From Nodosilinea sp. (GTDB taxonomy: Bacteria; Cyanobacteriota; Cyanobacteriia; Phormidesmidales; Phormidesmidaceae): DNA of 64,000 nt. Position numbers and translations under genes: made by a program. Shown one piece after another: positions 2,890 through 36,214 of the stretch. Each line of letters starts with the position of its first letter. The stretch's first letter is position 1. The DNA lies in assembly GCA_040396995.1 (NCBI GenBank), contig JBBAWV010000001.1, forward strand, positions 35,258 to 99,257. Reading direction: 5' to 3'. The notes under the pieces were generated by a model, which was given only the letters and a program-made list of their open reading frames with translations, did not search any database and was not told where the DNA came from.

Positions 2890-3699
2890 CTACAACGCCT
2901 GAAGCGCGACCAGTCGATCCTCGGTGAGGGGCGCGGGAGTGAGGCTGTAGAGAATGCCCTCGGTGACAGACACCAGGTTGAGGTAGTAGGGATCCTCCCC
3001 GTCCTTGGTGACTTGGTAAACCCGCACGCCCGTTTCCGTAGAAAGCACTTCCCCCGTGATGTTGCTGAGGGTATAGCCCTGGGCCTCCAAATTGTCCTGA
3101 AGGGATCCTGCCGCGCCGCGCCAGCCGCCTTCTACGGGGCTCGTCCAGCAGGTTTCACCGCCGCAATCGGCTTGTTGCGCTCCCTGAAAGTGGGGAAAAT
3201 CGGCGTAGGGCTGGGGTTCGGGTTCCGTAACGGGTTCTGTGACGGGTTCCGCGATGGGTTCCGGTTCTGGATCCGTAGAAATCGGTTCTGTGACGGGTGA
3301 CTCAGGGGCGGTGGCCAAGGGCTCGGCGGGGGCGGGAATGACTTCTGCGACAGGCTGCGGACTGGGGGGAATGGCCCTAGGCGATGGATTTACCGCTACG
3401 GCAGCGGGCCTCGTTGTAGCAGGGCGAGCCACTGGAAGGGGTGGCTCCGGTTCATCTGGGGCTGGGAGCGTCGGCAGCACCGCCACATCCATCGTCATTG
3501 TGGGTGGTTCTTCGAGGGCCGCGAAATCCTCGGTTTCGTTAGCGCTGGGCGACCAAGGTAGACCCAGCAACACCCCATGGGCACCCAAGGACGCCGCTAA
3601 ACACAGCCCCCCTAGCCAAGGCTTGAGCTTTGCAATCCCAAGTTGGTGGCCTGAGGTGCACGGGATCGGGGTGGAGTGGGGGGAAATCCGTAGAGTCAT
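2890..3699 (-). CDS. Membrane-anchored Pro/Glu-rich hypothetical protein (TonB-like anchor and spacer)
   Basis: N-terminal TM with S-x3-H (ASLGAHGVLL), long PEPEP/EPV spacer, small C-terminal domain with CGGETC. Confidence 0.7.
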   Translation of the reverse strand: MTLRISPHSTPIPCTSGHQLGIAKLKPWLGGLCLAASLGAHGVLLGLPWSPSANETEDFAALEEPPTMTMDVAVLPTLPAPDEPEPPLPVARPATTRPAAVAVNPSPRAIPPSPQPVAEVIPAPAEPLATAPESPVTEPISTDPEPEPIAEPVTEPVTEPEPQPYADFPHFQGAQQADCGGETCWTSPVEGGWRGAAGSLQDNLEAQGYTLSNITGEVLSTETGVRVYQVTKDGEDPYYLNLVSVTEGILYSLTPAPLTEDRLVALQAL

Positions 3700-3887
3700 T
3701 ATCGAAAAGCTTTGGCAGTAGTCTTGGCCAGGTAACGGGATCAGTTCACTATTAGCTTATGCCAAATTGGCCGGATAATCTACGAGTTCACTGGAAAATT
3801 AAGGATTCTCAAGCCTTTCGAGGGGCTTCGCTGCCCCTATTCCAGTTGCCACTAGACGCCACCTAAACCAGGTTGATTTTTGAATTT

Positions 3888-3906
3888 GTTGGGAAACTGT
3901 GTCAAT
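3888..3906. promoter_or_regulatory. Fur-box-like site upstream of futA, next to a -10-like TACAAT (3912-3917)
   Basis: GTTGGGAAA-C-TGTGTCAAT, about 12/18 match to ATTGAGAAT-N-ATTCTCAAT. Confidence 0.4.
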
Positions 3907-3982
3907 AAGCGCTACAATTCAATCGAAGTTGACGCCCGGAGGTATCTGCCTGAGGGCGTTTTGAAGGTTTGAGGTATTCAAC

Positions 3983-5056
3983 GTGTCAAGCAAATTAGGA
4001 AGACGTGTGTTTTTAGGGGCCGGAGCCGCCGCCGCCGTGGTTGCGGTAGGAGGGCTGAGGTCGAAATCTGCCCAGGCCCAGTTTCCGTGGAGCCGCAACC
4101 GGGGCCGCGTGGTCAATTTGTACTCGTCGCGCCACTACGATACCGATGAGGAACTCTACGAGGGTTTTCGAGAGGCCACGGGCATTCGGATCAACGTGGT
4201 GGAAGCCGAGGCCGACCAACTGATCGAGCGGATTAAAAGCGAAGGCCAAAACAGCCCCGCCGACCTGCTGATGACCGTGGATGCGGGGCGGCTGTGGCGG
4301 GCCGAACAGGAGGATCTCTTCCAGGCTGTGAATTCCTCGGTGTTGACGGGGGCCATTCCCGAAAACCTGCGTCATCCCGATGGGCTGTGGTTTGGCCTCA
4401 CCCAGCGGGCCAGGGTGTTGATGTACCACAAGGATCGGGTGAATCCCTCAGACCTTTCCACCTACGAAGACCTCGTTAATCCCAAGTGGCGGGGACGTCT
4501 GCTCACCCGTAGCTCCACCAATATCTACAGCCAGTCTTTGGTCGGATCCATGATTGCGGCCCACGGTGCAGCGGATACCGAAACCTGGGCACGGGGGTTG
4601 GTCGCCAACTTTGCCCGCGATCCCCAGGGTGGCGACACCGACCAAATCAAAGCCGTGGCGGCTGGTTTGGGTGACGTGGCCATTTCCAACACCTATTACT
4701 TGGCCCGTTTGATCAAGTCCGACAATGCCGAGGATCAAGCCGTGGCCGAAGCCATTGGTGTGTTCTTCCCCAACCAAAACGACCGGGGTACCCACGTCAA
4801 TATCAGTGGGGCTGGGTTGCTGAAAACCGCGCCCCATGCCGAGGACGCCATTGCCTTTCTAGAGTACTTGGTGAGTCCAGAGGCCCAGCGGATTTTTGCC
4901 GAAAGCAATAACGAGTACCCCGTGGTGGAAGGCGTGGCCATCGATTCTGTGGTGGCTGGATTTGGCGAATTTAAGGCCGATCCCCTCAATGCCGCCGTCT
5001 TTGGGCGCAACAACCCCGAAGCCCTACAAATTACCGACCGCGCAGGCTGGAAGTAG
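3983..5056 (+). CDS. futA: Fe(3+) ABC transporter substrate-binding protein FutA/IdiA, Tat-exported
   Basis: Twin-arginine leader GRRVFL; [38 protein letters not shown] motifs; GTG start. Confidence 0.92.
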
Positions 5057-5143
5057 GCTCTGTTGCCATTTGGCTAGGGTAGAGGGCATGCAGAACAACC
5101 CAAATTCGGAGAAGATGGGAAGCACTGAATCCCCCCTACCCCC

Positions 5144-5530
5144 ATGGCTGACATGCTGAAACTTGCGGTAAACGGTACCCTCATGCGAGGGCTAGAACTC
5201 AACCCCAACCTCATCCAGGCGGGGGCTGAGTTTTTGTATGAAACGACAACCACGCCCGACTATCGCCTATGGTCGATTCAAGATCGGCATCCGGCCATGG
5301 TGCGAGTCTCCACGGGCGGCGTGGCGGTGGCCCTAGAGGTGTGGCAAATGCCCGCCGCTGGCTTGGTGCAGGTGCTCTTGCAAGAACCGCCCGGATTGTC
5401 CATCGGTAAAGTTACCCTCAGCACAGGCGAAACGGTGTTGGGGGTGTTGGGAGAACCGATCCTCTGCGAAGGGCAGCGGGAAATTTCGGACTTTGGCGGC
5501 TGGCGGGCCTACCTGGCCCAGGGTGCCTAA
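5144..5530 (+). CDS. Gamma-glutamylcyclotransferase-like / allophanate hydrolase C-terminal-like protein
   Basis: LAVNGTLMRGLELN...YRLWSI...EVW...EPPGLSIGKVTL...ISDFGGWRAY. Confidence 0.7.
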   Translation: MADMLKLAVNGTLMRGLELNPNLIQAGAEFLYETTTTPDYRLWSIQDRHPAMVRVSTGGVAVALEVWQMPAAGLVQVLLQEPPGLSIGKVTLSTGETVLGVLGEPILCEGQREISDFGGWRAYLAQGA

Positions 5531-5540
5531 CCCATAACCG

Positions 5541-5600
5541 ATCACCCATCCCTATCACCCATCCCTATCACCCATACACCCTATCACCCATACACCCATG
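5541..5600 (+). repeat. Short tandem repeat ATCACCCATCCCT x2 then ATCACCCATACACCCT x~2
   Basis: Read directly; STRR-like intergenic repeat. Confidence 0.8.
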
Positions 5601-5877
5601 AGCCCAAGGCGGATTCGTGGAACGTTAGGACTTGGGCTAGATTGTCAGGGACGATACGATCATGGTGGCCTGTCCTTGCTAGGCTAGGTGGGTATTCTCT
5701 AGCCACAAAATACCTTTTGGCTCAGCTTTTTAATACCTCAGCAAGCTTTTGTTGTGTTCACTACATTTCTCGCGCATTGAGGTTCTCGCGCACATTGAAC
5801 TTTATTACGTTCTCTCCTGTGGATATTAAAACTAAAAAAGAGGGAACTATAACTGTGGTTGACCTTTCACTTCAGGA

Positions 5878-6135
5878 ATGCAGGTCATGGAAATTCCCCA
5901 AGCCATCATCGACGACCTTATTTTGACCCTCCACCAAGCCCAGCGATCCACGGTGTTGATTGGCGGCACCAGTGGCCAAGCTGCCGATGCGGTCTCTCTC
6001 CACAGCAATAACCGTCGCCATCGCCAGCAGCAGCAGGCCATTGCCTCCGTCATTGGCACGGTGCTAGAGTTCGCGAGCGAAGATGTGCAATCGCGATTGG
6101 CCTCCAGCTATCGCAAATCCGCCAGTTTGCCCTAG
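5878..6135 (+). CDS. Hypothetical small protein (85 aa; start may be 5887)
   Basis: Isolated ORF after an AT-rich promoter-like region; no family recognised. Confidence 0.5.
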   Translation: MQVMEIPQAIIDDLILTLHQAQRSTVLIGGTSGQAADAVSLHSNNRRHRQQQQAIASVIGTVLEFASEDVQSRLASSYRKSASLP

Positions 6136-6210
6136 GCTTGGTTCTTCCCGACCCCAAAGCGGTTAAGATGCCACGGTACTCTCTACCATCTCCCTAGGGG
6201 TTAGGGTTGC

Positions 6211-7428
6211 ATGGCAATGACTTCAACGCTTTGGCGTCAGGATTTGGGGCGCTTTGTTCGGCAATACTTGATTTATTTTTTGCCGATCACCTTTCTGATA
6301 TATCTCACCCTAGAAAGCTATCAGATCGACTTTCGGAGTTTTTATCTGGCTGGCAAATCGGTGCTGTTTGGGCTTGATCCCTACCTCAACTATGTAGGGA
6401 TACGGCCTGAGTTCTATGGCCCCATTAATGCCGAAACCGCTCCGTTTTCGGGATTTCGCTATCCGCCCTTTGCGGCCCTCATGTTTGCGCCCTTGGCCCT
6501 GTTTCCCTACGCCGTCGCCAAGGCCCTCTTTACCCTCGCCATGCTGATTAGCCTGGGCCTGCTGAGTTTTGGCCTGGTGCGGCGCAGTCGGTTTGCGATC
6601 CCCGGTGAGGCGCTACTGTTTATGATGGTCAGCTTTCCGGTGCTGGCCCTGGTGGAACGCGGCCAGGTAGATAGTGCCTTGGTTTATCTGGTGGCCTTGG
6701 CCTACTGGGCTAGTCAATATCGCTATGGCAGTTGGCTGACCGCGTTGTTGATTGGGGCGGCTGGAGCGTTCAAGATTTTCCCCATTGTGGCGCTGGTGTT
6801 CTATGCAATGCGCCGCCAGTACCGATTGGTGGCGGGAACGCTGCTGTGGGCGGCAGGGTTGGTGTTGCTGCCCTATGTCTACTTTGGCAACGAGGTCTAT
6901 AGCCACTTTTTGCAGCGAACGTTTCCCGCCTATTTGGGCGAAATCACCACCAATCTGCCGATGAGTTTGCACAATCAAGGGGTGGCGTTGAACAAGGTGG
7001 TGATCTCGATGGATGCCGATAACCTGATTGCCACCCACGATTTTGTCAATGGCTCTATGAATCCTTTGCTGAGTAGCAGCACCCTGGGAACGCTGATTTC
7101 TGGCACGGTGTTGACCATTCTGCTGCTGATTGCCCTGCACCGCTGCCCGGTGGATATGCAGTTCTACAGCTTGCTGAATGTCATCAATCTATTCAACCCG
7201 GTAGCCTGGATTATGGGCTTGGTATGGCATATTCCTCTGTTTCTATACCTATATCCCCGTTCAACTCGACTGGGGCAGTTTTTGCTGTTGCTACCGCTGT
7301 TTTTGCCGCCTTTTCTCAATGCAAGTGCCGTAGTGGCCTATGTCTTTACCATTGTGTTTGCCCTGGCCTATCGCTGGCCTCCCTTGGGCCGTCACCTGTT
7401 GATCCCCGCCCAAGACTATGTGGCTTAG
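6211..7428 (+). CDS. Glycosyltransferase family 87 / DUF2029 polytopic membrane protein
   Basis: IDFRSFYLAG, FRYPPFAAL, ERGQVD, FKIFP motifs; many TM helices. Confidence 0.8.
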   Translation: MAMTSTLWRQDLGRFVRQYLIYFLPITFLIYLTLESYQIDFRSFYLAGKSVLFGLDPYLNYVGIRPEFYGPINAETAPFSGFRYPPFAALMFAPLALFPYAVAKALFTLAMLISLGLLSFGLVRRSRFAIPGEALLFMMVSFPVLALVERGQVDSALVYLVALAYWASQYRYGSWLTALLIGAAGAFKIFPIVALVFYAMRRQYRLVAGTLLWAAGLVLLPYVYFGNEVYSHFLQRTFPAYLGEITTNLPMSLHNQGVALNKVVISMDADNLIATHDFVNGSMNPLLSSSTLGTLISGTVLTILLLIALHRCPVDMQFYSLLNVINLFNPVAWIMGLVWHIPLFLYLYPRSTRLGQFLLLLPLFLPPFLNASAVVAYVFTIVFALAYRWPPLGRHLLIPAQDYVA

Positions 7429-7456
7429 CCAGCACTCAGCCACAAGGAGAGGATCT

Positions 7457-7552
7457 GGGGGTGAGGGCTGCGGGGGACTTTGCGATCTACTGAGCCTGAC
7501 AAACCATAGGGGCGAGGTCTCCCGCTGATACCGGGGGCAAGCAAGCTGGATT
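7457..7552 (+). repeat. Composite repeat: one end of the 47020 MITE family (TTTGCGATCTACTG, 7479-7492) joined to a degenerate GTAGGGGCG-REP element
   Basis: 7465-7492 matches the reverse complement of 47020-47046; 7500-7552 matches 41870-41926. Confidence 0.75.
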
Positions 7553-7558
7553 ATGAGC

Positions 7559-8113
7559 CTAGGCCGTCTTTTGTTCGACGCCAAAGCCTACTAGCACCAG
7601 CGTATCCAGGGGTTGGCCCTCCGCTGGGCGCTGGTAGTTGAGGATGCGGCGAATGCGCATCTTGGGGTTGACCAACAGGATGGAATCCACGGAAACCACG
7701 CGGGTATAGGGGGTGGTCATCAGCAGTTCGCGATTTGTGGGGGCGTAGCGAAAGCTGGATACGATGGGACGCGCTTCTTCGTAGGCCCGATCCCGCAGAT
7801 AGTCGCCAGTAATCACGCCATCGGTTTGCTGTTTGGGCACAAATAAGGCCCGCAACTCCTGGGAGACCTCCTCGCCCTTGTCGGAAACGGTGTGAAATAC
7901 CAGATTGAACCCCGGCAGATCGTCGAGATCGTCGGGGATTGGGTAGGCGTTGTCGGTTAAGACCTTGCGCTTGAGGTCGGAACTGATGGCCTCTACCTGA
8001 AAATCGGTGTGGGAACGCTCGATTTCCTGGTGGGTGAGGTAGTGGTAGGTGCGCTCAATCGACCAGCGACCCAGGCAGCAGTCAAAAAAATAGTTGATAT
8101 CCGAGAGATCCAT
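7559..8113 (-). CDS. CpcS/CpeS-family phycobiliprotein lyase-like protein
   Basis: FFDCCLGRWSIERTYHYL...ERSHT lipocalin-type lyase pattern. Confidence 0.75.
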   Translation of the reverse strand: MDLSDINYFFDCCLGRWSIERTYHYLTHQEIERSHTDFQVEAISSDLKRKVLTDNAYPIPDDLDDLPGFNLVFHTVSDKGEEVSQELRALFVPKQQTDGVITGDYLRDRAYEEARPIVSSFRYAPTNRELLMTTPYTRVVSVDSILLVNPKMRIRRILNYQRPAEGQPLDTLVLVGFGVEQKTA

Positions 8114-8456
8114 CGTTCTTCATTTGCCCAGGGAAAGCCTCTCTGATCGTACCCCCAGGGCAACCTTTGGGCCGATGGATTTGCGCTAACAGGCAGATGC
8201 GTGACGGCTCCCAGCCTCAACGCCGATACAAAACGACCTGGGGATTGCCATTAAGTAAAAATGCTTACAGATTGCCCTGCCAGAATTCGTACAATCAGCC
8301 TCAATCCTGCCTATGCCAACGCCCAAGCCACCTTGCCGACCGATGGGGCAATCACTATAGTTAAGAAATGTAAATCAAAATTACGTTTTCCATCATTTAG
8401 TTGACTTTGCTCCAACGTCTTCAAGTCGCCCCTAGTCACAACCTGGATAGTCTCCT

Positions 8457-8993
8457 ATGCCTTTCTCCGTCGAAACCGCCCGCATTTTAGCCGAGCCCTT
8501 GGTGACGGCCTTTTTCCAGGAAACGGCTGGGGAATGGCGTTCTGAGCGTCGCTACTACACCCTCAGCAGCGGCGAAACCCAGGAAGTCGTCAGTCAGATC
8601 ACCATTGAGTTCCTGGAAGCAGGCCATCCGCAGCTCTTGCATTTGGCCGAATTGCACCACCTCACCGCCCATGCGCCCCTCATTTGTGGTACCGCCGTCT
8701 CCTGGGAAAGCGACTATGTGGGCACAGGCAAAAAGCCCGTCAAAGGCAGCACACTGTTTGGGGTGAGAGGAACGACGCTGTATCGAGATCGGGGCTTTGC
8801 CACCAGCAAACCCGTTACCGCCCAATACCTGTTTCCCGATAGCCGCACCCTCCAGCTCAAAACCGAGTACAACCAATCCTCCTTTGAGGAAGAAATTCGC
8901 CTGATTGGCCACCGCTACCGCACCCGCCAAACGGTCATCTCCCGCGCCGGAGAACAGGTGATGATCGGCCAATACCTCGAAACCCGCTGCTAA
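8457..8993 (+). CDS. CpcS/CpeS-family phycobiliprotein lyase (CpcV-like)
   Basis: FFQETAGEWRSERRYYTL...LYRDRGFATSKPV...FEEEIRL...RTRQTVISRAG. Confidence 0.8.
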   Translation: MPFSVETARILAEPLVTAFFQETAGEWRSERRYYTLSSGETQEVVSQITIEFLEAGHPQLLHLAELHHLTAHAPLICGTAVSWESDYVGTGKKPVKGSTLFGVRGTTLYRDRGFATSKPVTAQYLFPDSRTLQLKTEYNQSSFEEEIRLIGHRYRTRQTVISRAGEQVMIGQYLETRC

Positions 8994-9072
8994 GGAGGGG
9001 GGCGCAGGTTCCCTATAATGGGGTGTCGTCGGTAGCGGTGTTTCTGTTCCCGTTTATCCCATTTGTGTCCCT

Positions 9073-9666
9073 ATGTCCCCCCAATCGTCTGGCTCCAAGC
9101 CATCTGTGAATGTTGCCCCCGAGCTAGCTGCTCAGCCCCGCCAAGAGAGCCTTTGGAGCAATGTGCGGACCCTGTTGATTGCCCTGGTGGTGGCGCTGGT
9201 GGTGCGGGTGGCCATTGCCGAACCGCGCTACATTCCGTCAAATTCCATGGATCCGACCCTGCACATTAGTGATCGCCTGCTGGTGGATAAAATTAGCTAT
9301 CGCTGGCAGGCAGCGCATCGGGGCGATATTGTGGTGTTTAAACCGCCCGCCAAACTGGTGAAACTAGGCTATAAAAGCGACCAAGCCTTCATCAAACGCA
9401 TCATTGGCGAACCGGGCGATACCCTTCAAATCGCCGCCGGACAGGTGATCCTCAATGGACAGCCGCTACCGGAGCCCTACATTGCAGAATCCCCCCGGTA
9501 CGAAATGCCAGCGGTGACCGTTCCCTCTGGCTATGTGTTTGTCTTGGGCGACAACCGCAACGACAGCAACGATTCCCATGTTTGGGGGCCGCTCCCCCGG
9601 CAAAACTTAATTGGCAAAGCCCGCCTGCGGTTCTGGCCCTTAGATCGCCTTGGCCCGGTTTCCTAG
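9073..9666 (+). CDS. lepB: Signal peptidase I
   Basis: IPSNSMDPTL (catalytic Ser), FIKRIIG (catalytic Lys), GDNRNDSNDSHVWG. Confidence 0.95.
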   Translation: MSPQSSGSKPSVNVAPELAAQPRQESLWSNVRTLLIALVVALVVRVAIAEPRYIPSNSMDPTLHISDRLLVDKISYRWQAAHRGDIVVFKPPAKLVKLGYKSDQAFIKRIIGEPGDTLQIAAGQVILNGQPLPEPYIAESPRYEMPAVTVPSGYVFVLGDNRNDSNDSHVWGPLPRQNLIGKARLRFWPLDRLGPVS

Positions 9667-9678
9667 CGCTCCGATTTC

Positions 9679-10467
9679 CTAGCGCCCTATTTCCAGCCTT
9701 TCCCCCACGGTCTCAATTTGGGGCAAAGTGGGCAGTGGTTGATCAAAGTCATTCATAATCGGACTGGTCTCTAGGCGCTGGCGAAATTCCTCTGCTCCAA
9801 AGCGCCGCACCCGTCGTTGCAACTCGGCCACATCCACCTCCCCAGGACTCACCAAAAGCTGTTCCCCATCGCGAATCACCACCACGTCGGTCGCTCCGAT
9901 GGGCTGAAAGGTGACTTCCCCTTCCCAGGCGAAAAATTCGACGGGTGCTTGGGGATCCTCAGCAATGTTAATGAAAACCGTAGTACCGCGAATGCCCGCC
10001 GTACCGACGGGGGTTTGAATCGTTACCGGGCCGGGAGGCTGACCCTCAAGCCAGGTCAACATTTGCCCAGCCGCCATCTGAAGCTGCTGATTGGGGCGCA
10101 GGGTCAACGAGGCATTCCCCCCCAAACGAAAGACTAATGTGCCTAGGCTCACCTCCACTAGGGCCGGAGCTTCGGTGCGAACAGTGTCTTCGTATTGCAG
10201 CGCCGTACCCACCTGAGCCGCAACTTCCTCCCCCTGGGCGGGCTGCACCCACACGGGTTGGGTCACAATATCGCGAATGGTGGCGATAGCTTTTGCCAAG
10301 GGGGCTGGTGTCTCGGTTGATGGCGAACTGCTAGGTACAGTAGGGGCAGTCGTTGGGGGGACGACCGTGCCGCGACACCCGACTAGTACCAGTCCGAGCA
10401 AGCCCCAGCCTAGCCCCCATCGCAACGGTTGCAGCCAACTGACGTAAGACAGGAACGCATGTTTCAT
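9679..10467 (-). CDS. FecR-domain lipoprotein
   Basis: Lipobox LVGC; DTVRT, IQTPVGTAGIRGTTV, EGEV FecR signatures. Confidence 0.8.
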   Translation of the reverse strand: MKHAFLSYVSWLQPLRWGLGWGLLGLVLVGCRGTVVPPTTAPTVPSSSPSTETPAPLAKAIATIRDIVTQPVWVQPAQGEEVAAQVGTALQYEDTVRTEAPALVEVSLGTLVFRLGGNASLTLRPNQQLQMAAGQMLTWLEGQPPGPVTIQTPVGTAGIRGTTVFINIAEDPQAPVEFFAWEGEVTFQPIGATDVVVIRDGEQLLVSPGEVDVAELQRRVRRFGAEEFRQRLETSPIMNDFDQPLPTLPQIETVGERLEIGR

Positions 10468-10529
10468 GACCTAGGGCTGTTCAGTAGGATCAGCGGTAAG
10501 AATGGAGCAGTCTTCACCAGCCTAGGCGG

Positions 10530-11549
10530 CTATTCCGGAACGGTGGCGTTCTTCAATCGTTCTAGGGTGGCCATGACGGGCAAATGGTCGGACGCTTGGG
10601 CGGCAGCTTCCACCACCTGCCAATTGCGCAAGGTCAGGGTAGACGGGGTATAAAAGATATAGTCCAAGCTGTATTGGGGGCTATCGGCAGGAAACGTAGC
10701 CGCATTCGTCTGCATCGGAACCGCACTAGCTAAAACTGGGGAATCCAGCAAAATTTGAATCGAAGGCGTTTCCCCAGCTTCCGACTCCGCCGCTCGGTCG
10801 AGGTCGCTGTTAAAGTCCCCCAGCAGCAGCACGGGCATGGTGGCGGCATACCGTTCGGCCAATTGCCGCACAAAGGTGGTTTGGCGGCTACGAGTGGGGC
10901 CGTCAAAAGCCTCCAGGTGAACGTTAATCACCATCAGCGGCTGTCCCGATAGGTCAAGCTCCGTCACCTGGGCTACCCGGTCGAGGTAGAGGGCGTTGTA
11001 GTAAAAGGGATTTGTAGGCACCCGTTCCAGGACAAGGCGCTGGTTATCGCGGATGGGGTAGCGGCTCAGCACCGCTTGGCCAGAGGTGACGGCCTGGTAA
11101 TGGGCTTGGGGTGGCCAGTAGGGAAAGGGCACATAGCGCTTATCCCAGTTCACGACCAGGGCAGCAAAGGGCAGAGTCAACGCCTTGGACAGAGCATACT
11201 GCTGGTTGAGGTGGAAGGATCGGTAGGCATCAAAATCCACCTCTTGCAGGGCCAGCACATCCAGCTTCAGCGGCTGCAACGCGGATATCGCCGTGGCCTG
11301 GTTGGCCTCCAACAATGCTCGATCTCGCACCACCGCCTGCTGATTCGTCATCCCCGACAGATAGCCCAGGTTGTAGGTGGCCACGGTGAGAGTTTCGGGA
11401 TTGTCCGGGCCGGGGGAATCGTCGTAGGTGATGGTGTTGTCGTAGTCGGCCTCGGCCCATCGGGGGCCACTGATGTAGAAAAAAGTCGCCACCAACAGTA
11501 CCAGGGGCAGGTCAATGGCCAGGGTCACGATCCAGAAGATTTTTTTCAC
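10530..11549 (-). CDS. Endonuclease/exonuclease/phosphatase family protein
   Basis: VATYNLGY, LALQEVD, NVHLEA, LLGDFN, LDYIF, SDHLPV; N-terminal TM. Confidence 0.9.
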   Translation of the reverse strand: MKKIFWIVTLAIDLPLVLLVATFFYISGPRWAEADYDNTITYDDSPGPDNPETLTVATYNLGYLSGMTNQQAVVRDRALLEANQATAISALQPLKLDVLALQEVDFDAYRSFHLNQQYALSKALTLPFAALVVNWDKRYVPFPYWPPQAHYQAVTSGQAVLSRYPIRDNQRLVLERVPTNPFYYNALYLDRVAQVTELDLSGQPLMVINVHLEAFDGPTRSRQTTFVRQLAERYAATMPVLLLGDFNSDLDRAAESEAGETPSIQILLDSPVLASAVPMQTNAATFPADSPQYSLDYIFYTPSTLTLRNWQVVEAAAQASDHLPVMATLERLKNATVPE

Positions 11550-11594
11550 CTTGGCATTATTCCCCCGGCGATGGCCTGCGATTCACAGCATTTC

Positions 11595-12434
11595 CTACGA
11601 TTCACGAGGCTTGGCCAACTTAGCCTTGGCCTGTTGCCAAAAAGCTTCCAACTCCTCCACAGAGAGATCGGTGAGGGGCTTGTCGGCGACGGCTTCCACC
11701 AGTTCAAAGCGACGAATGAAGCGCTGGTTAGTGCCGTGAAGCGCCGCTGAAGGATCCAACCCATGCCAACGGGCAATATTGACCAGGGTAAACAGCAAAT
11801 CCCCCAGTTCGGCCTCTTGATTTTCCTTCGGTTCGTGGGCGACGGCCTGGTGAAATTCTTCTAGTTCTTCGTGGAATTTGGCCCACACGCCCTCCACATC
11901 GTCCCACTCAAACCCAGCCTTGGCGGCTTTGGCAGAAATTTTGCTGGCGGCCATCAGCGGCGGCAGGGTGCGATTATACTTGGCCAACTTGGGCGATAGG
12001 CGATCCGGTTCGTGGGGGATGCCTTTCTCCTCGGCCTTGATCCGATCCCAGTTGCGATGCACCTCTTCCGTATCGGCCACGGTCACATCGCCAAACACAT
12101 GGGGATGGCGGCGAATTAGCTTATCGGCAATGCCGTTGGCCACCGTCGCCAAGTCAAAATCCCCCGCATCACTCGCCACCTGGGCCTGCAAAACCACCTG
12201 CAACAACAGATCACCCAGCTCTTCTGCCATGGCCGTAGTATCGCCACTGTGGATGGCATCCACCACCTCATAGGCTTCCTCCACCACGTAGGGAATCAGG
12301 CTTTCAGCGGTTTGCTCCAAATCCCACGGACAACCCGTTTCAGGATGGCGTAGATCGGCCACCACCGCCACCAATCGCCCTAGGGCCGACAAAATTTGGG
12401 CACGACCCGCCTCCGTTGCAAAGGAAGACACCAT
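11595..12434 (-). CDS. mazG: Nucleoside triphosphate pyrophosphohydrolase MazG
   Basis: GCPWDLEQT, EEAYEV, EELGDLLLQV, KLIRRHPHVF; tandem MazG domains. Confidence 0.95.
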   Translation of the reverse strand: MVSSFATEAGRAQILSALGRLVAVVADLRHPETGCPWDLEQTAESLIPYVVEEAYEVVDAIHSGDTTAMAEELGDLLLQVVLQAQVASDAGDFDLATVANGIADKLIRRHPHVFGDVTVADTEEVHRNWDRIKAEEKGIPHEPDRLSPKLAKYNRTLPPLMAASKISAKAAKAGFEWDDVEGVWAKFHEELEEFHQAVAHEPKENQEAELGDLLFTLVNIARWHGLDPSAALHGTNQRFIRRFELVEAVADKPLTDLSVEELEAFWQQAKAKLAKPRES

Positions 12435-31528: not shown

Positions 31529-31843
31529 CTAGTCCACATACACCACCACATACTGGGTGCCGTAGGGCTGGTAGTAGGTGCCACCACAGGAGTAGAGGGA
31601 AACCCCGTCGATGTAGACCGTGCTACAGCCCACGGGCAGGGTGGTGGCGTAGATGGCCGATCGACGGATCACCCGCCGCGTGGTGCGCCGAGCTGCTCCT
31701 GCCACGCTCACCGGGGTGGCGGGCCGCCCCACAATCGCCGCCGCTGGCTGCATTACCAGCTTGCCGCCCCACAGTCCATCGGTCACCGCGCCCGCCGCCA
31801 GTAGGCCACAGGCTCCAATCATCAAACGCTGCATTAAGTTCAT
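31529..31843 (-). CDS. Small secreted Arg-rich protein (DUF6515-like, uncertain), paralog 2
   Basis: Signal-like N-terminus ending PAAA; GRPATPVSVAGAARRTTRRVIRR; LPVGC...YSCGGTYYQP...YVVVYVD; RBS GGAGG. Confidence 0.8.
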   Translation of the reverse strand: MNLMQRLMIGACGLLAAGAVTDGLWGGKLVMQPAAAIVGRPATPVSVAGAARRTTRRVIRRSAIYATTLPVGCSTVYIDGVSLYSCGGTYYQPYGTQYVVVYVD

Positions 31844-31870
31844 GGCTCAAACCTCCAAGGTTGAGGGTCG

Positions 31871-32212
31871 TTAATCCACATACACCACGACGTATTGGTT
31901 GTTGTAGGGCTCGTAGTAGGTGCCACCACAGGAGTAGAGGCTTGTCCCTTCGATCACCACGGTGGTACATCCCACGGGCAGACTGGCGACGTAGACAGTG
32001 GAACGCCGAATTACCCGTCGGGTGGTGCGTCGGGCGGTTCCGGCGACGCTGACGGGGGTGGCGGGTCTACCCACCACAGCCTCAGCCCGCTGGGTGACTA
32101 GGAGGCGGCTGTTAAACAGGCCATCGGCCACGGCACTCACCGCCAGCAGGGCCACGGTGCCTACCATTACGGACTTCACAGATTTCACAGATTTCATCGA
32201 TTGCCTTGGCAT
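31871..32212 (-). CDS. Small secreted Arg-rich protein (DUF6515-like, uncertain), paralog 1
   Basis: Same motifs; start overlaps the DUF2092 stop (TAATG); ORF-track extension to 32434 is unlikely. Confidence 0.8.
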   Translation of the reverse strand: MPRQSMKSVKSVKSVMVGTVALLAVSAVADGLFNSRLLVTQRAEAVVGRPATPVSVAGTARRTTRRVIRRSTVYVASLPVGCTTVVIEGTSLYSCGGTYYEPYNNQYVVVYVD

Positions 32213-33003
32213 TATTGGGCCTCCTGATAGTCTTCGAGTTCGCTGGGGGGCAGAGCTTCCAGCAGGGTGGCTCCGGCGGGGGGGGTAAAGGTGAAGCGGT
32301 TGGCGGGAATCTGGGGGCTGGTGTTCCAGTCGCGCAGACGAATGGAATATTCCGGCGCACCCGTTACCCATTTGGTGGTGATCACATACTTCATAGGTAG
32401 GGGGACATCCCCGGTTTGCACCCAGATTTGCCAATCCACATCAGCTTCGCGGAAGGCCAGGTGATGCACTTCCACGCCATCGATGTAGGCCGTGCCCAGG
32501 TAAAGGCTGCTCTCCACCCCTTCCATCAGCACCTCGTAGGGGTTGCTAAACATTAAATCTGCCCCCGGAAAGGGCAGGCCCGTCTCGGCTTCCATGGTGA
32601 GAATGGCATCGTCGATGGTGCCGCTGAGGGGGATGTTGGCATAGGCGTTAATCCGCCGCCCAAAAATAGTGATCTGGTTGCCGTTGAAGAAAACTTCGGC
32701 ATCGGCCAGTGGCCCCTGCCGCTGCAAAAAGAACCCCGTGGGCCGCTGCATTACCATGGAGGCATAGCTGCTGAATTGCAGTTTTTGACCACTTCTAGCC
32801 ACCACTTCAAAATCAATATCGGCGTTGACGCTAAAGGCTTCGGTTTCCGCCAGGTAGTCTGACATAAATTGCAGAACTTCCGTGGCGTTGGGGTCTAGCT
32901 CTTGGGCCTGGGCCGACATCGGCGCGATGGCCCCCACCGTAAGGGCCATACCGAGGGCGAGGGAGACTCCGCCGATGGGGTTTAGAAAATAGTTGTTGTT
33001 CAT
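32212..33003 (-). CDS. DUF2092 periplasmic protein
   Basis: Signal peptide ending AQA; MSDYLA, GQKLQFS, HHLAFRE.DVDWQIWV.TGD.PLP.KYVIT. Confidence 0.85.
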   Translation of the reverse strand: MNNNYFLNPIGGVSLALGMALTVGAIAPMSAQAQELDPNATEVLQFMSDYLAETEAFSVNADIDFEVVARSGQKLQFSSYASMVMQRPTGFFLQRQGPLADAEVFFNGNQITIFGRRINAYANIPLSGTIDDAILTMEAETGLPFPGADLMFSNPYEVLMEGVESSLYLGTAYIDGVEVHHLAFREADVDWQIWVQTGDVPLPMKYVITTKWVTGAPEYSIRLRDWNTSPQIPANRFTFTPPAGATLLEALPPSELEDYQEAQ

Positions 33004-33841: not shown

Positions 33842-36214
33842 CTACTGCCGTGCCATGGCCACCCGCAGCCGCTCGTCGGGCGAAATTAGGTGGTCGTGGT
33901 CGTCCTTGCCCACATCCAACTGCACCCAGTGGAGTTTGCCCGTGAACTTGCTGCTGTGGGCGCTGTAGTCGGGGGTGACGCAGGTGCCCGACTCGTAGCC
34001 GATGTCGGTGGTTTCATCCGCCGAGAAAATCATCGGCTGGGTGGCCTCGACCCGACCCGACCCGACGGGCTGACCATCGTAGTAGAGGTTCACATTGCCG
34101 CCCTTGGCCAAGCCGCCGCCATCGTAGGCAAACTCCATTCGCACCTGGTGCTTGCCCTGGGGAATGGGAGCCGTCGCCTCGGTGTAAAACTCCTGAATGC
34201 CCAGCACGTTGTAGACAAACTTGAGCTTGCCCTCCTTGGTGTAGACGCTCCAGCCACCGAACTTGCCGCCTTGGGCGATGATCACGCCCTCGGCAGGTTT
34301 GTCCGCCTTAATTTCCACCTCGGCGGTGATGGAGAAGGACTTGTTCTTGATGTTAATGACGCTGTTTTCCGACAGACGGCCCATGCCCGCAAAGAAAATT
34401 TGCGAATCTCCCTTCACCAGGGAGGGACGACCAGCGGTGGTGGGGTCGATGCGCTCGGTCTGGCGATCATCCAGGGGCAGCACGTTGTACTTCACGGCTT
34501 CAATCAAAAACTGGCGCTGAAGTTCAAGCAGTTTCTCTGGCATCTCCTGGGCCAGGTTGTGGAATTGCGTCCAGTCTTTGCTGCCGTCGTAGAGTTCCCA
34601 CACGTCTTGATCAAAGGGCGGCATGGTTTGACCCACCATCACCCAGGGGGTGCGGTGCTTGGTGATGGCGCTCCAGCCCTTGTAGTAGATGCCCCGGTTG
34701 CCAAACATCTCAAAGTATTGGATTTCGTGGCGTTCCGGCGCATTGGCCTCGTTAAAGCTGTAGACCATGCTGGTGCCCTCGTAGGGGCTTTGCAGCACGC
34801 CGTTTACCATCGTCGGCTCAGGAATACCCGCGACTTCCAGGACTGTAGGAGCCACGTCAATCACATGGCTAAACTGGTGCCGGATGCCACCCTTGTCTTG
34901 AATCCCCTTGGGATAGCGGACGATGGTGCCGTTGCGGGTGCCGCCCCAGTGGGAGGCCACTTGCTTCGTCCATTGGTAGGGCGTATCCATGGCCCAGGCC
35001 CAGCCCACAGCATAGTGGTTGTAGGAATCGGGGCCGCCAAATTCCTCCAGTTTGGACTGCATGAATTCCGGGGTTTCTAGCCCTGCCATGCCGTTGAAGT
35101 TGGCCATTTCGTTGAAGGCTCCGTGGATGGTGCCCTCGGCGGATGCGCCATTGTCGCCGATGATCACGTAGATCAGGGTGTCGTCCAGAATTTCCAGATC
35201 CTCTAGGGCGTCAATCACCTGCCCCACGGCGTAGTCGGTGTGCTCCAGGAACCCGGCGTAGACCTCCATCTGCCGCTCTAGCACCGGCTTGTAGGCGGCA
35301 TCCATCTCATCCCAGGCGGGAATTTCGGCATGGCGGGGGGTGAGTTCGGCATCGGGGCCAATCACGCCCAGTTCCTTCTGCTTGGCAAAGGTGATCTCCC
35401 GCTGGCGATCCCAGCCGTGGGCAAATTGACCTTTGTATTTATCAGCCCATTCCTTCGGCACATGGTGCGGTGCGTGGGTGGCACCGGGGGCAAAGTACAT
35501 AAAGAAGGGCTTGTCGGGCATGAGCGCCTTTTGCTGGCTGATCCAGCCAATTGCCTTCTCCGCCAAATCCTCGGTCAGGTGGTAGCCCTCCTCAAAGGTG
35601 GCGGGGGGCTCGATGGGGGTGGTGCCTTCGTAGAGGGCCGGATCCCACTGGTTGTTTTCGCCGCCAATGAAGCCATAGAAATACTCGAAACCGCCGCCCC
35701 CGGTGGGCCACGCATCAAACGGCCCCATCGGCGAGGTCTGCCATACGGGCACCTCGTGGCACTTGCCCAGCATGGCGGTGGAGTAGCCGTTCAGCTTTAG
35801 GGTCAACGGGAGGGGCGCTTTGGTGTTGGGCCGCACCGAGCATTGCCCTGGTGCGGCGGTGGCGGTTTCGGTGATGTTGCCCATGCCCACCGAGTGGTGG
35901 TTGCGCCCGGTCAACAACGCCTGCCGGGTGGGGGCACAGAGGGCGGTGGTGTGGAAACGGGTGTACTTCAGCCCTTGTCCGGCTAGCTTCTCGAAGGTTG
36001 GCGTATGGCAAGGCCCACCAAAGGCGCTAGAGGCTCCAAAGCCCACATCATCCAGCAGCACCACCAACACGTTGGGGGCATCCGCTGGCGGACGCAGATC
36101 GCGAATCGGGGGATATTTCGTATCGGGATCCTTGGCATCGTAGGTGGTAATGCCAAAGTGGGTTTGGTCGGGAATGGGCAGAATCTGTCTTGGCACCGTG
36201 TGGTTTGAAGTCAT
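33842..36214 (-). CDS. Arylsulfatase (Cys-type, formylglycine-dependent), no signal peptide
   Basis: PNVLVVLLDDVGFG, ALCAPTRQALLTGRNHH (CxPxR), GKCHE, IGDNGAS, HQFSHVIDVAPT. Confidence 0.95.
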   Translation of the reverse strand: MTSNHTVPRQILPIPDQTHFGITTYDAKDPDTKYPPIRDLRPPADAPNVLVVLLDDVGFGASSAFGGPCHTPTFEKLAGQGLKYTRFHTTALCAPTRQALLTGRNHHSVGMGNITETATAAPGQCSVRPNTKAPLPLTLKLNGYSTAMLGKCHEVPVWQTSPMGPFDAWPTGGGGFEYFYGFIGGENNQWDPALYEGTTPIEPPATFEEGYHLTEDLAEKAIGWISQQKALMPDKPFFMYFAPGATHAPHHVPKEWADKYKGQFAHGWDRQREITFAKQKELGVIGPDAELTPRHAEIPAWDEMDAAYKPVLERQMEVYAGFLEHTDYAVGQVIDALEDLEILDDTLIYVIIGDNGASAEGTIHGAFNEMANFNGMAGLETPEFMQSKLEEFGGPDSYNHYAVGWAWAMDTPYQWTKQVASHWGGTRNGTIVRYPKGIQDKGGIRHQFSHVIDVAPTVLEVAGIPEPTMVNGVLQSPYEGTSMVYSFNEANAPERHEIQYFEMFGNRGIYYKGWSAITKHRTPWVMVGQTMPPFDQDVWELYDGSKDWTQFHNLAQEMPEKLLELQRQFLIEAVKYNVLPLDDRQTERIDPTTAGRPSLVKGDSQIFFAGMGRLSENSVINIKNKSFSITAEVEIKADKPAEGVIIAQGGKFGGWSVYTKEGKLKFVYNVLGIQEFYTEATAPIPQGKHQVRMEFAYDGGGLAKGGNVNLYYDGQPVGSGRVEATQPMIFSADETTDIGYESGTCVTPDYSAHSSKFTGKLHWVQLDVGKDDHDHLISPDERLRVAMARQ

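Follow-up and report, generated by a model that had tools for sequence, protein, structure and literature searches.

What do two small, arginine-rich and apparently exported proteins do when their genes are attached, by a start codon that overlaps a stop codon, to the gene of a DUF2092 protein, a member of a Pfam family of unknown function? The question is raised by a set of minus-strand genes in the cyanobacterium Nodosilinea sp. (assembly GCA_040396995.1, contig JBBAWV010000001.1, positions 35,258 to 99,257; this whole 64-kb stretch is referred to as the window, and its coordinates are used throughout), for which open reading frames (ORFs) and translations were examined. A DUF2092 gene is followed there by two tandem genes, mini1 and mini2, that encode the small proteins (Table 1). 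A preliminary description made from the sequence alone had suggested that these mini-proteins could be cargo or partners of DUF2092, or surface peptides that bind polyanions. We find the linkage between DUF2092 and mini genes to be near-obligate whichever of the two is taken as the starting point, and conserved over six or more phyla. The explanation that we favour, with somewhat better than even confidence, is an obligate periplasmic pair in which a DUF2092 carrier with a LolA fold is joined by a small basic partner that docks through a conserved core motif.

Linkage was surveyed in both directions. In the forward scan, a pattern search of one genome per species returned at least 452 loci encoding a mini relative, of which the best 80 were kept, and DUF2092 was detected on six-frame stop-to-stop ORFs with a hidden Markov model (HMM) built from DUF2092 homologues. 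In 68/80 of these genome loci the gene immediately upstream, in the same orientation, is DUF2092. The forward-scan loci span Cyanobacteriota, alpha-, beta-, gamma- and deltaproteobacterial lineages, Myxococcota, Acidobacteriota and Gemmatimonadota. The reverse scan applied a DUF2092-only pattern to metagenome contigs and gave 80 loci, 70 of them evaluable, as 10 contigs stop within 200 nt of the DUF2092 stop codon. An ORF with the core motif is found at or just past that stop in 65 of the 80, and four of the remaining five loci have a degenerate arginine-rich small ORF of exported type at the same place; counted together, such an ORF lies directly downstream in 65 to 69 of the 70 evaluable DUF2092 loci. 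The junction itself is often kept as well, with the partner start overlapping the DUF2092 stop (ATGA, TAATG or TGATG) in 58 of 86 partner genes and in 49 of 66 partners of the window type. The preliminary description had called for an HMM survey and had staked its reading on DUF2092 linkage recurring elsewhere; we looked for the linkage and it was found both ways.

Within the window, the final A of the DUF2092 TAA codon is also the A of the mini1 ATG, a 1-nt overlap that reads TAATG, and the ORF coordinates bear out the earlier reading of this junction. Gaps of 27 nt and 30 nt separate mini1 from mini2 and mini2 from a membrane-protein gene, which in turn lies 4 nt from a DUF1254/DUF1214 gene. 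A terminator was looked for between the genes from DUF2092 through DUF1254/DUF1214 and none was convincing; because the spacing is tight and no convincing terminator intervenes, we read these genes as one compact operon. The two mini-proteins are 68% identical overall by BLASTP (E 2e-41). Their N-terminal 36–45 residues diverge, and the 68 residues past the Ala-x-Ala site are identical at 55 positions (81%), so that of the two properties first ascribed to them the divergence of the signal peptides stands, whereas "near-identical" was slightly generous for the ~68-aa mature parts. Identical in both are the core GRPATPVSVAG-x-ARRTTRRVIRR, the two cysteines and the YVVVYVD end. Synonymous divergence (dS) is 0.79 and nonsynonymous divergence (dN) is 0.15, with a dN/dS of 0.19; mini1 and mini2 are an old tandem duplication with purifying selection on both copies. 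The duplication is limited to one clade, comprising the window, Phormidium FACHB-1136 and Leptolyngbya BL0902. The n-region of the mini1 signal peptide (32168-32194, minus strand) carries KSV three times, encoded by a 9-bp tandem repeat (AAATCTGTG AAATCTGTG AAGTCCGTA), and this expansion is absent from orthologues.

Comparison across the partner family indicates which part of the small protein accompanies DUF2092. More than 1,000 close mini homologues were found, and a family profile search collected 2,329 cluster representatives at 50% identity (E <= 0.001), numbers that put the mini-proteins well outside what chance would produce. In all partners, a signal-peptide-like region at the N-terminus leads to an Ala-x-Ala site and then to the core [RIV][VI]GRPxTPxSxAGVARRTxRR (also written xVGRPxTPxSxAGVARRTxRR), which is at least 60% identical and almost invariant from cyanobacteria to proteobacteria; the invariant or near-invariant columns in alignment A3 are G39, R40, P41, T43, P44, S46, A48, G49, R52, R53, T54, R56 and R57. 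What follows the core varies. Type A partners, to which the window proteins belong, continue with a beta unit of ~45 residues containing two Cys, type B with a short CAVGVYxC loop, type C with a G/A-rich stretch and then a Cys loop, and type D with a Gly/Val/Pro-rich tail. Type E has no tail, and its predicted mature peptide is only ~22 residues long (for example IVGRPATPVSVAGVARRTVRRW, ending ...ARRTVRRW). Each of types A to E is found directly after DUF2092 genes. Because the core is the only part common to every type, it appears to be the element that travels with DUF2092; judged from these alignments, the DUF2092-linked determinant would be the N-terminal core motif, with the Cys-pair/Tyr-Val domain replaceable or absent in other lineages.

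In model searches, no Pfam or NCBIfam model covered the core. The DUF6515 profile (PF20125) matches mini1 with 25.4 bits, just over the gathering threshold (GA) of 24.9 and over residues 74–111 only, and mini2 with 22.5 bits, under that threshold; both alignments cover profile positions 92/94–129 of 179, equivalent to one repeat unit. The same profile gives 138 bits, in five stretches, for a protein in which the unit is repeated five times in tandem. Against the NCBIfam VPA0510 family (NF052668, cut-off 95 bits), mini1 reached 16.6 bits (E 0.009) and mini2 had no match. Two database proteins carry the core in several copies separated by Asp/Glu-rich spacers: P0130 (286 aa, from a 1.9-kb ENA contig) has four copies behind a eukaryote-looking signal peptide, and P0265 (273 aa, from a 1-kb Logan contig) has three. 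Their repeated unit is [IVR][VI]GRPLTPVSVAG[VS]ARRxxRR..., and P0130 gives a sub-threshold match to Pfam DUF5848 (23.3 bits, GA 26.9) that spans one copy. Both proteins have a eukaryotic look, and these multi-copy precursors suggest that the core is a stand-alone peptide module.

Partner type is also reflected in the phylogeny of DUF2092. On a maximum-likelihood tree of 124 DUF2092 sequences, grouping by partner type needs 9 changes against a mean of 46.8 when the labels are shuffled, and none of 200 shuffles reached 9. This clustering shows long, stable co-inheritance. No natural DUF2092-mini fusion was found. One Logan protein of 238 aa, P0258, joins the N-terminal third of DUF2092 in frame to a mini-type protein, and is probably a deletion/truncation or an assembly artefact, not a natural fusion.

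Sequence features support the earlier view that the mini-proteins are secreted. They have the basic n-region, the hydrophobic h-region and the small −3/−1 residues of Sec/signal peptidase I substrates, with Ala at −3 in 84 of 87 family members and at −1 in all 87, and the best 12-residue hydrophobic stretch of the partners has a mean Kyte-Doolittle value of 2.5. The n- and h-regions of the mini-proteins are typical, and residues 3–25 of mini2 are modelled as a helix. In members with short signal peptides (L067, where MKRAHFSALTLTLVLAAGEVLA is followed by VVGRP, and likewise L151 and L153), Ala-x-Ala lies directly past the h-region; cleavage past this site is plausible. Exactly two Cys occur in 79/87 mature parts, a pattern that fits a periplasmic disulfide. 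A lipoprotein identity was rejected for want of a conserved lipobox: in mini2, IGAC comes after no more than 8 residues, and mini1 and most homologues lack a Cys at that place. We also rejected a Tat substrate, since the RR clusters lie past both the h-region and Ala-x-Ala and do not form S/T-R-R-x-F-L-K before the h-region. DUF2092 has a classical predicted signal peptide of its own (ending APMSAQA, with QE as the first mature residues). The charges of the two components are complementary: mature partners have a median isoelectric point (pI) of 10.2 and a median net charge of +6, and DUF2092 proteins have medians of 4.7 and −11.5, the mature window copy standing at about −20 with a pI of 4.2.

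DUF2092 of the window matches Pfam PF09865 with E 7e-69 and 231.9 bits (GA 21.2) over profile positions 1–208 of 212. Its AlphaFold2 (AF2) model, built from a 62-sequence alignment, has a predicted local distance difference test score (pLDDT) of 88 and a predicted template modelling score of 0.81, and a Foldseek search with it gave 73 PDB matches at E <= 0.001. The top matches are LolA proteins of many species (8v1k, E 3.6e-11; 4mxt, TM score 0.77), with LolB, LprG, LppX and RseB ranking below them (RseB 2v42, E 3.5e-7). The modelling thus confirmed a predicted LolA fold, an unclosed antiparallel beta-barrel with a helical plug, which the preliminary description had put forward and which agrees with a published remote-homology study (PMC4520260). 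DUF2092 as a LolA orthologue was tried and rejected on its score of 23.7 bits against a cut-off of 112 for TIGR00547; NF000661 gave 17 against 255, and the match to these LolA equivalog models is confined to the last ~30 residues. Sequence searches of the PDB found no match for DUF2092 or for the mini family. The AF2 model of mini2 (68-sequence alignment) contains a five-stranded unit at residues 59–103 with pLDDT 88–93 (strands 59–66, 74–78, 81–86, 89–94 and 97–103), and confidence drops over the core, with block-mean pLDDT values of 50–59 over residues 21–50 and 67 over residues 51–60. Foldseek found no match for the whole mini2 model (best E 1.3), a search in which the disordered half depresses scores. 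An invariant core for which no structure is predicted in isolation is what a segment that takes its fold from a partner typically shows.

Taken with the linkage, the predicted LolA fold and the export features make "cargo or partner" appear the right frame. In the periplasmic pair that we favour, DUF2092, mini1 and mini2 share one operon, which would encode an exported two-component module, DUF2092 being the soluble, very acidic periplasmic carrier and the mini-proteins its Sec-exported, strongly basic partners. The stop/start overlap ties partner synthesis to that of DUF2092, for which fixed stoichiometry is the simplest explanation. We infer that the core, a segment of ~20 residues with which the mature protein is predicted to begin, docks on the surface of DUF2092 or inside it: the alternating TPVSVAG segment might add as a strand or fill the opening of the barrel, and the RRxxRR cluster might pair with conserved acidic residues of DUF2092. 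Invariant in DUF2092 are R87, D149, D190 and a WQxW segment. The C-terminal beta unit, one DUF6515 repeat with a predicted disulfide, is a lineage-specific add-on, and the window has two partner isoforms because of the old tandem duplication. The likely role of the complex is to bind or transfer a ligand of the envelope that is anionic and amphiphilic. For TPVSVAG we also noted what we take to be a likeness to a TonB-box strand; no TonB/ExbBD is linked to the pair. A bolder version, which we think doubtful, would make the core a self-contained, ribosomally made cationic peptide and DUF2092 its dedicated receptor or carrier, of a peptide-loaded (peptide-gated or -plugged) class.

Several observations weigh against the periplasmic pair. 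Two DUF2092-linked partners (L111 and L113) have lost GRPxTPxS and keep only the Arg-rich segment and the beta unit, so the core as a whole may not be the exact recognition element. That the DUF2092 tree groups by partner type would be expected of any stably linked gene pair and is no proof of contact. In most members, both window copies included, a spacer with a median of 19 residues lies between the end of the h-region and Ala-x-Ala; as such a spacer is long for signal peptidase I, membrane-anchored forms may persist in some members. Within 8 kb in the 80 loci, the pair has no third gene that is consistently linked to it, and the ligand is a guess. Finally, 12 of the 80 genome loci have a partner without adjacent DUF2092, as might be expected if the mini-proteins were envelope proteins that share the DUF2092 operon for co-expression only and make no contact with its product. 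We regard such an arrangement as improbable, given near-obligate adjacency in both directions, an overlap kept in six or more phyla while other neighbours change, complementary charges, and a conserved core that is predicted to be unstructured alone.

The same long spacer could mean an anchor that must be pulled out of the membrane, and so favours a model in which DUF2092 is a dedicated periplasmic chaperone that shields the mini-proteins and, as LolA does with lipoproteins, ferries them from the inner to the outer membrane in a transient complex, not a stable working unit; the delivered mini-proteins would then act alone, for example with the Arg cluster bound to lipopolysaccharide or another surface polyanion. 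A LolA fold with a hydrophobic cavity (Foldseek; PMC4520260) would suit this role, and many partners have hydrophobic C-terminal segments, such as the Val/Tyr-rich beta unit, the G/A/V-rich stretch of type C, and the ...VVVYF end of alphaproteobacterial type A proteins, which is like the C-termini of outer-membrane proteins. Minimal partners, with mature parts of ~22 aa, however, have no hydrophobic extension, so that shielding inside the cavity does not apply to all partners. Across the 80 loci neither a receptor nor a release factor is linked with any consistency, and 1:1 translational coupling is unusual for a recycling chaperone. We consider this delivery model unlikely, while granting it a real share of our confidence. 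Small, cationic, exported and disulfide-bonded products (the last two properties predicted) beside an acidic neighbour could also describe a Sec-exported, bacteriocin-like antimicrobial peptide with DUF2092 as its immunity or neutralising protein. Bacteriocins diversify fast, whereas the core is almost invariant (at least 60% identity); the pair has no linked genes for export, processing or outer-membrane release; and PADLOC and a search of other defence families gave no match. The bacteriocin/immunity pair was set aside on these grounds as highly improbable.

Table 1. Features of the DUF2092-mini operon, in window coordinates.
Feature	Position	Strand	Remarks
DUF2092 gene	33003..32212	-	263 aa; Pfam PF09865 match; predicted acidic periplasmic LolA-fold protein
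mini1	32212..31871	-	113 aa; ATG overlaps DUF2092 stop (TAATG)
mini2	31843..31529	-	104 aa; tandem paralogue of mini1
Shine-Dalgarno AGGAGG of mini1	32220..32225	-	strong site, 7 nt before ATG, within DUF2092 3' end
Shine-Dalgarno GGAGG of mini2	31852..31856	-	strong site, 8 nt before ATG
mini1 signal peptide (predicted), aa 1-45	32078..32212	-	ends RAEA, putative signal peptidase I site
mini1 core motif VVGRPATPVSVAGTARRTTRRVIRR, aa 46-70	32003..32077	-	alignment conservation
mini1 C-terminal beta unit and Cys pair	31874..32002	-	one DUF6515 repeat unit; paralogue AF2 model has five strands
mini2 signal peptide (predicted), aa 1-36	31736..31843	-	ends PAAA; AF2 helix 3-25
mini2 core motif IVGRPATPVSVAGAARRTTRRVIRR, aa 37-61	31661..31735	-	extreme conservation, low AF2 confidence
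mini2 C-terminal beta unit, aa 62-104, Cys73 and Cys86	31532..31660	-	AF2 strands
Downstream membrane protein, 219 aa	30839..31498	-	weak sub-threshold DUF1345 match; 30 nt after mini2

Homologues of the downstream membrane protein adjoin mini genes on the downstream side in three other loci (L005, L009 and L011) and lie within ~1.2 kb in L007; in Leptolyngbya BL0902 a hypothetical gene occupies its position. It is an operon neighbour in cyanobacterial versions only. The wider cluster in the window includes an AraC regulator, a BASS transporter, an arylsulfatase of 790 aa, described as cytoplasmic, and a second DUF1254/DUF1214 gene. Short contigs of a freshwater metatranscriptome are near-identical to DUF2092, mini1 and the downstream gene; they are a weak sign of transcription in nature, DNA carry-over being another possible source.

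Neighbours were counted within 8 kb in the best 80 mini-found genome loci. Sulfatases were found in 25–27, a YfaZ-like outer-membrane protein in 22, another outer-membrane-like protein in 19, DUF1254/DUF1214 in 15, an MscS-type channel in 15–16, AraC in 12, a DUF900 hydrolase in 7, BASS in 6–7 and a patatin-Omp85 protein in 6. Against a rough estimate of sulfatase gene density, the sulfatase share is well above expectation; the DUF2092-mini pair also occurs without a nearby sulfatase. The predicted fold suggests a hydrophobic ligand, and the Arg cluster, together with the sulfatase, BASS and outer-membrane-channel neighbours, suggests an anionic, possibly sulfated, amphiphile; the arylsulfatase, BASS, DUF1254/DUF1214 and AraC genes of the window would fit a sulfated hydrophobic compound. 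The argument for sulfation is indirect, coming from sulfatase neighbours in about a third of loci.

Some neighbours recur in distant lineages. Immediately after the mini gene, two cyanobacteria and Mesorhizobium have the gene of a large MscS-family channel (627–700 aa) that is extended at length on its N-terminal side; channel genes of this kind lie at 8369-10177 in L003, 8806-10686 in L008, about 8532-10682 in L045, L055 and L058, and 8380-10536 in L061 (locus coordinates). A gene for a patatin-POTRA-Omp85 (PlpD-like) phospholipase lies near the pair in several loci of beta- and gammaproteobacteria (L014, L020, L022, L024, L030 and L060), and a DUF900 alpha/beta hydrolase in seven others; these neighbours point to a lipid-related neighbourhood. 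The ~790-aa arylsulfatase of the window (33842-36214), which has a C-terminal Laminin_G_3 domain, is 60–75% identical between cyanobacteria and alpha- or betaproteobacteria and lies near the pair in L022, L030, L038, L045, L055 and L073, which suggests joint transfer of the module between phyla. The same cluster was found at 3665-11725 of a 93.5-kb plasmid of the isolate Leptolyngbya sp. BL0902 (L081, NZ_CP046157.1), in the order AraC, BASS, hypothetical, DUF2092, mini1, mini2, membrane protein and sulfatase-like; on account of this plasmid location the module may be mobile. RefSeq labels the plasmid copies DUF2092, DUF6515 (mini1) and hypothetical (mini2).

The main soluble carriers that bacterial envelopes have for hydrophobic cargo are proteins with a LolA fold. 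We know of few partners for them besides those of LolA/LolB, RseB and the mycobacterial Lpr proteins. DUF2092 shares with LolA and LolB the unclosed beta-barrel-plus-helices fold (E 3.6e-11, TM score up to 0.77), a signal peptide and a predicted soluble periplasmic state. It differs in that its partner is not a lipoprotein (no conserved lipobox) and in being coupled to a small basic protein and not to LolCDE/LolB; no lol gene is adjacent to DUF2092 at the locus. RseB-RseA (MucB-MucA) offers a parallel in gene arrangement and partner type: a LolA-like periplasmic protein binds a periplasmic segment of its partner that contains Arg and is disordered alone, and the two genes are adjacent. RseA, however, carries an anti-sigma domain in the cytoplasm, and the DUF2092 pair has no linked sigma factor or regulator; moreover, it is mainly to the small C-terminal domain of RseB that RseA binds, a domain which DUF2092 does not have. 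Mycobacterial LprG and LppX are likewise LolA-like envelope proteins, which bind lipids and act together with a membrane partner, but they are lipoproteins of monoderm-like envelopes with glycolipids as ligands, and neither is coupled to a small basic protein. The C-terminal beta unit of the mini-proteins resembles one repeat of DUF6515 (PF20125), and RefSeq calls the BL0902 orthologue of mini1 a "DUF6515 family protein"; the profile, in contrast, describes several tandem units of ~40 aa, of which the mini-proteins have one copy, at or below threshold, and it leaves the core uncovered. In the literature searched, DUF2092 appears only in a remote-homology survey (PMC4520260), and there is no paper on the DUF2092-mini pair or its core motif, no functional paper on DUF6515 and none on VPA0510. 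LolA-like proteins with protein partners are known, whereas a dedicated, translationally coupled small cationic partner for one has not been described before.

The DUF2092 and mini genes have been catalogued only as DUFs or hypothetical proteins. Our results show that DUF2092 comes with a dedicated small partner at almost all the loci examined, and they define the DUF2092-mini pair as a widespread, unstudied module of the cell envelope. They also offer a testable handle on DUF2092 in the form of a 22-residue peptide, a pair that can be co-expressed and a culturable isolate, Leptolyngbya sp. BL0902. If the core is indeed a self-contained peptide, the pair would represent a new class of peptide-loaded periplasmic carrier, whose minimal form is a 22-aa peptide plus DUF2092. 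Should the frequent presence of sulfatase, outer-membrane-channel and BASS genes nearby have a functional meaning, the pair could serve as the periplasmic leg in a pathway for uptake of sulfated amphiphiles.

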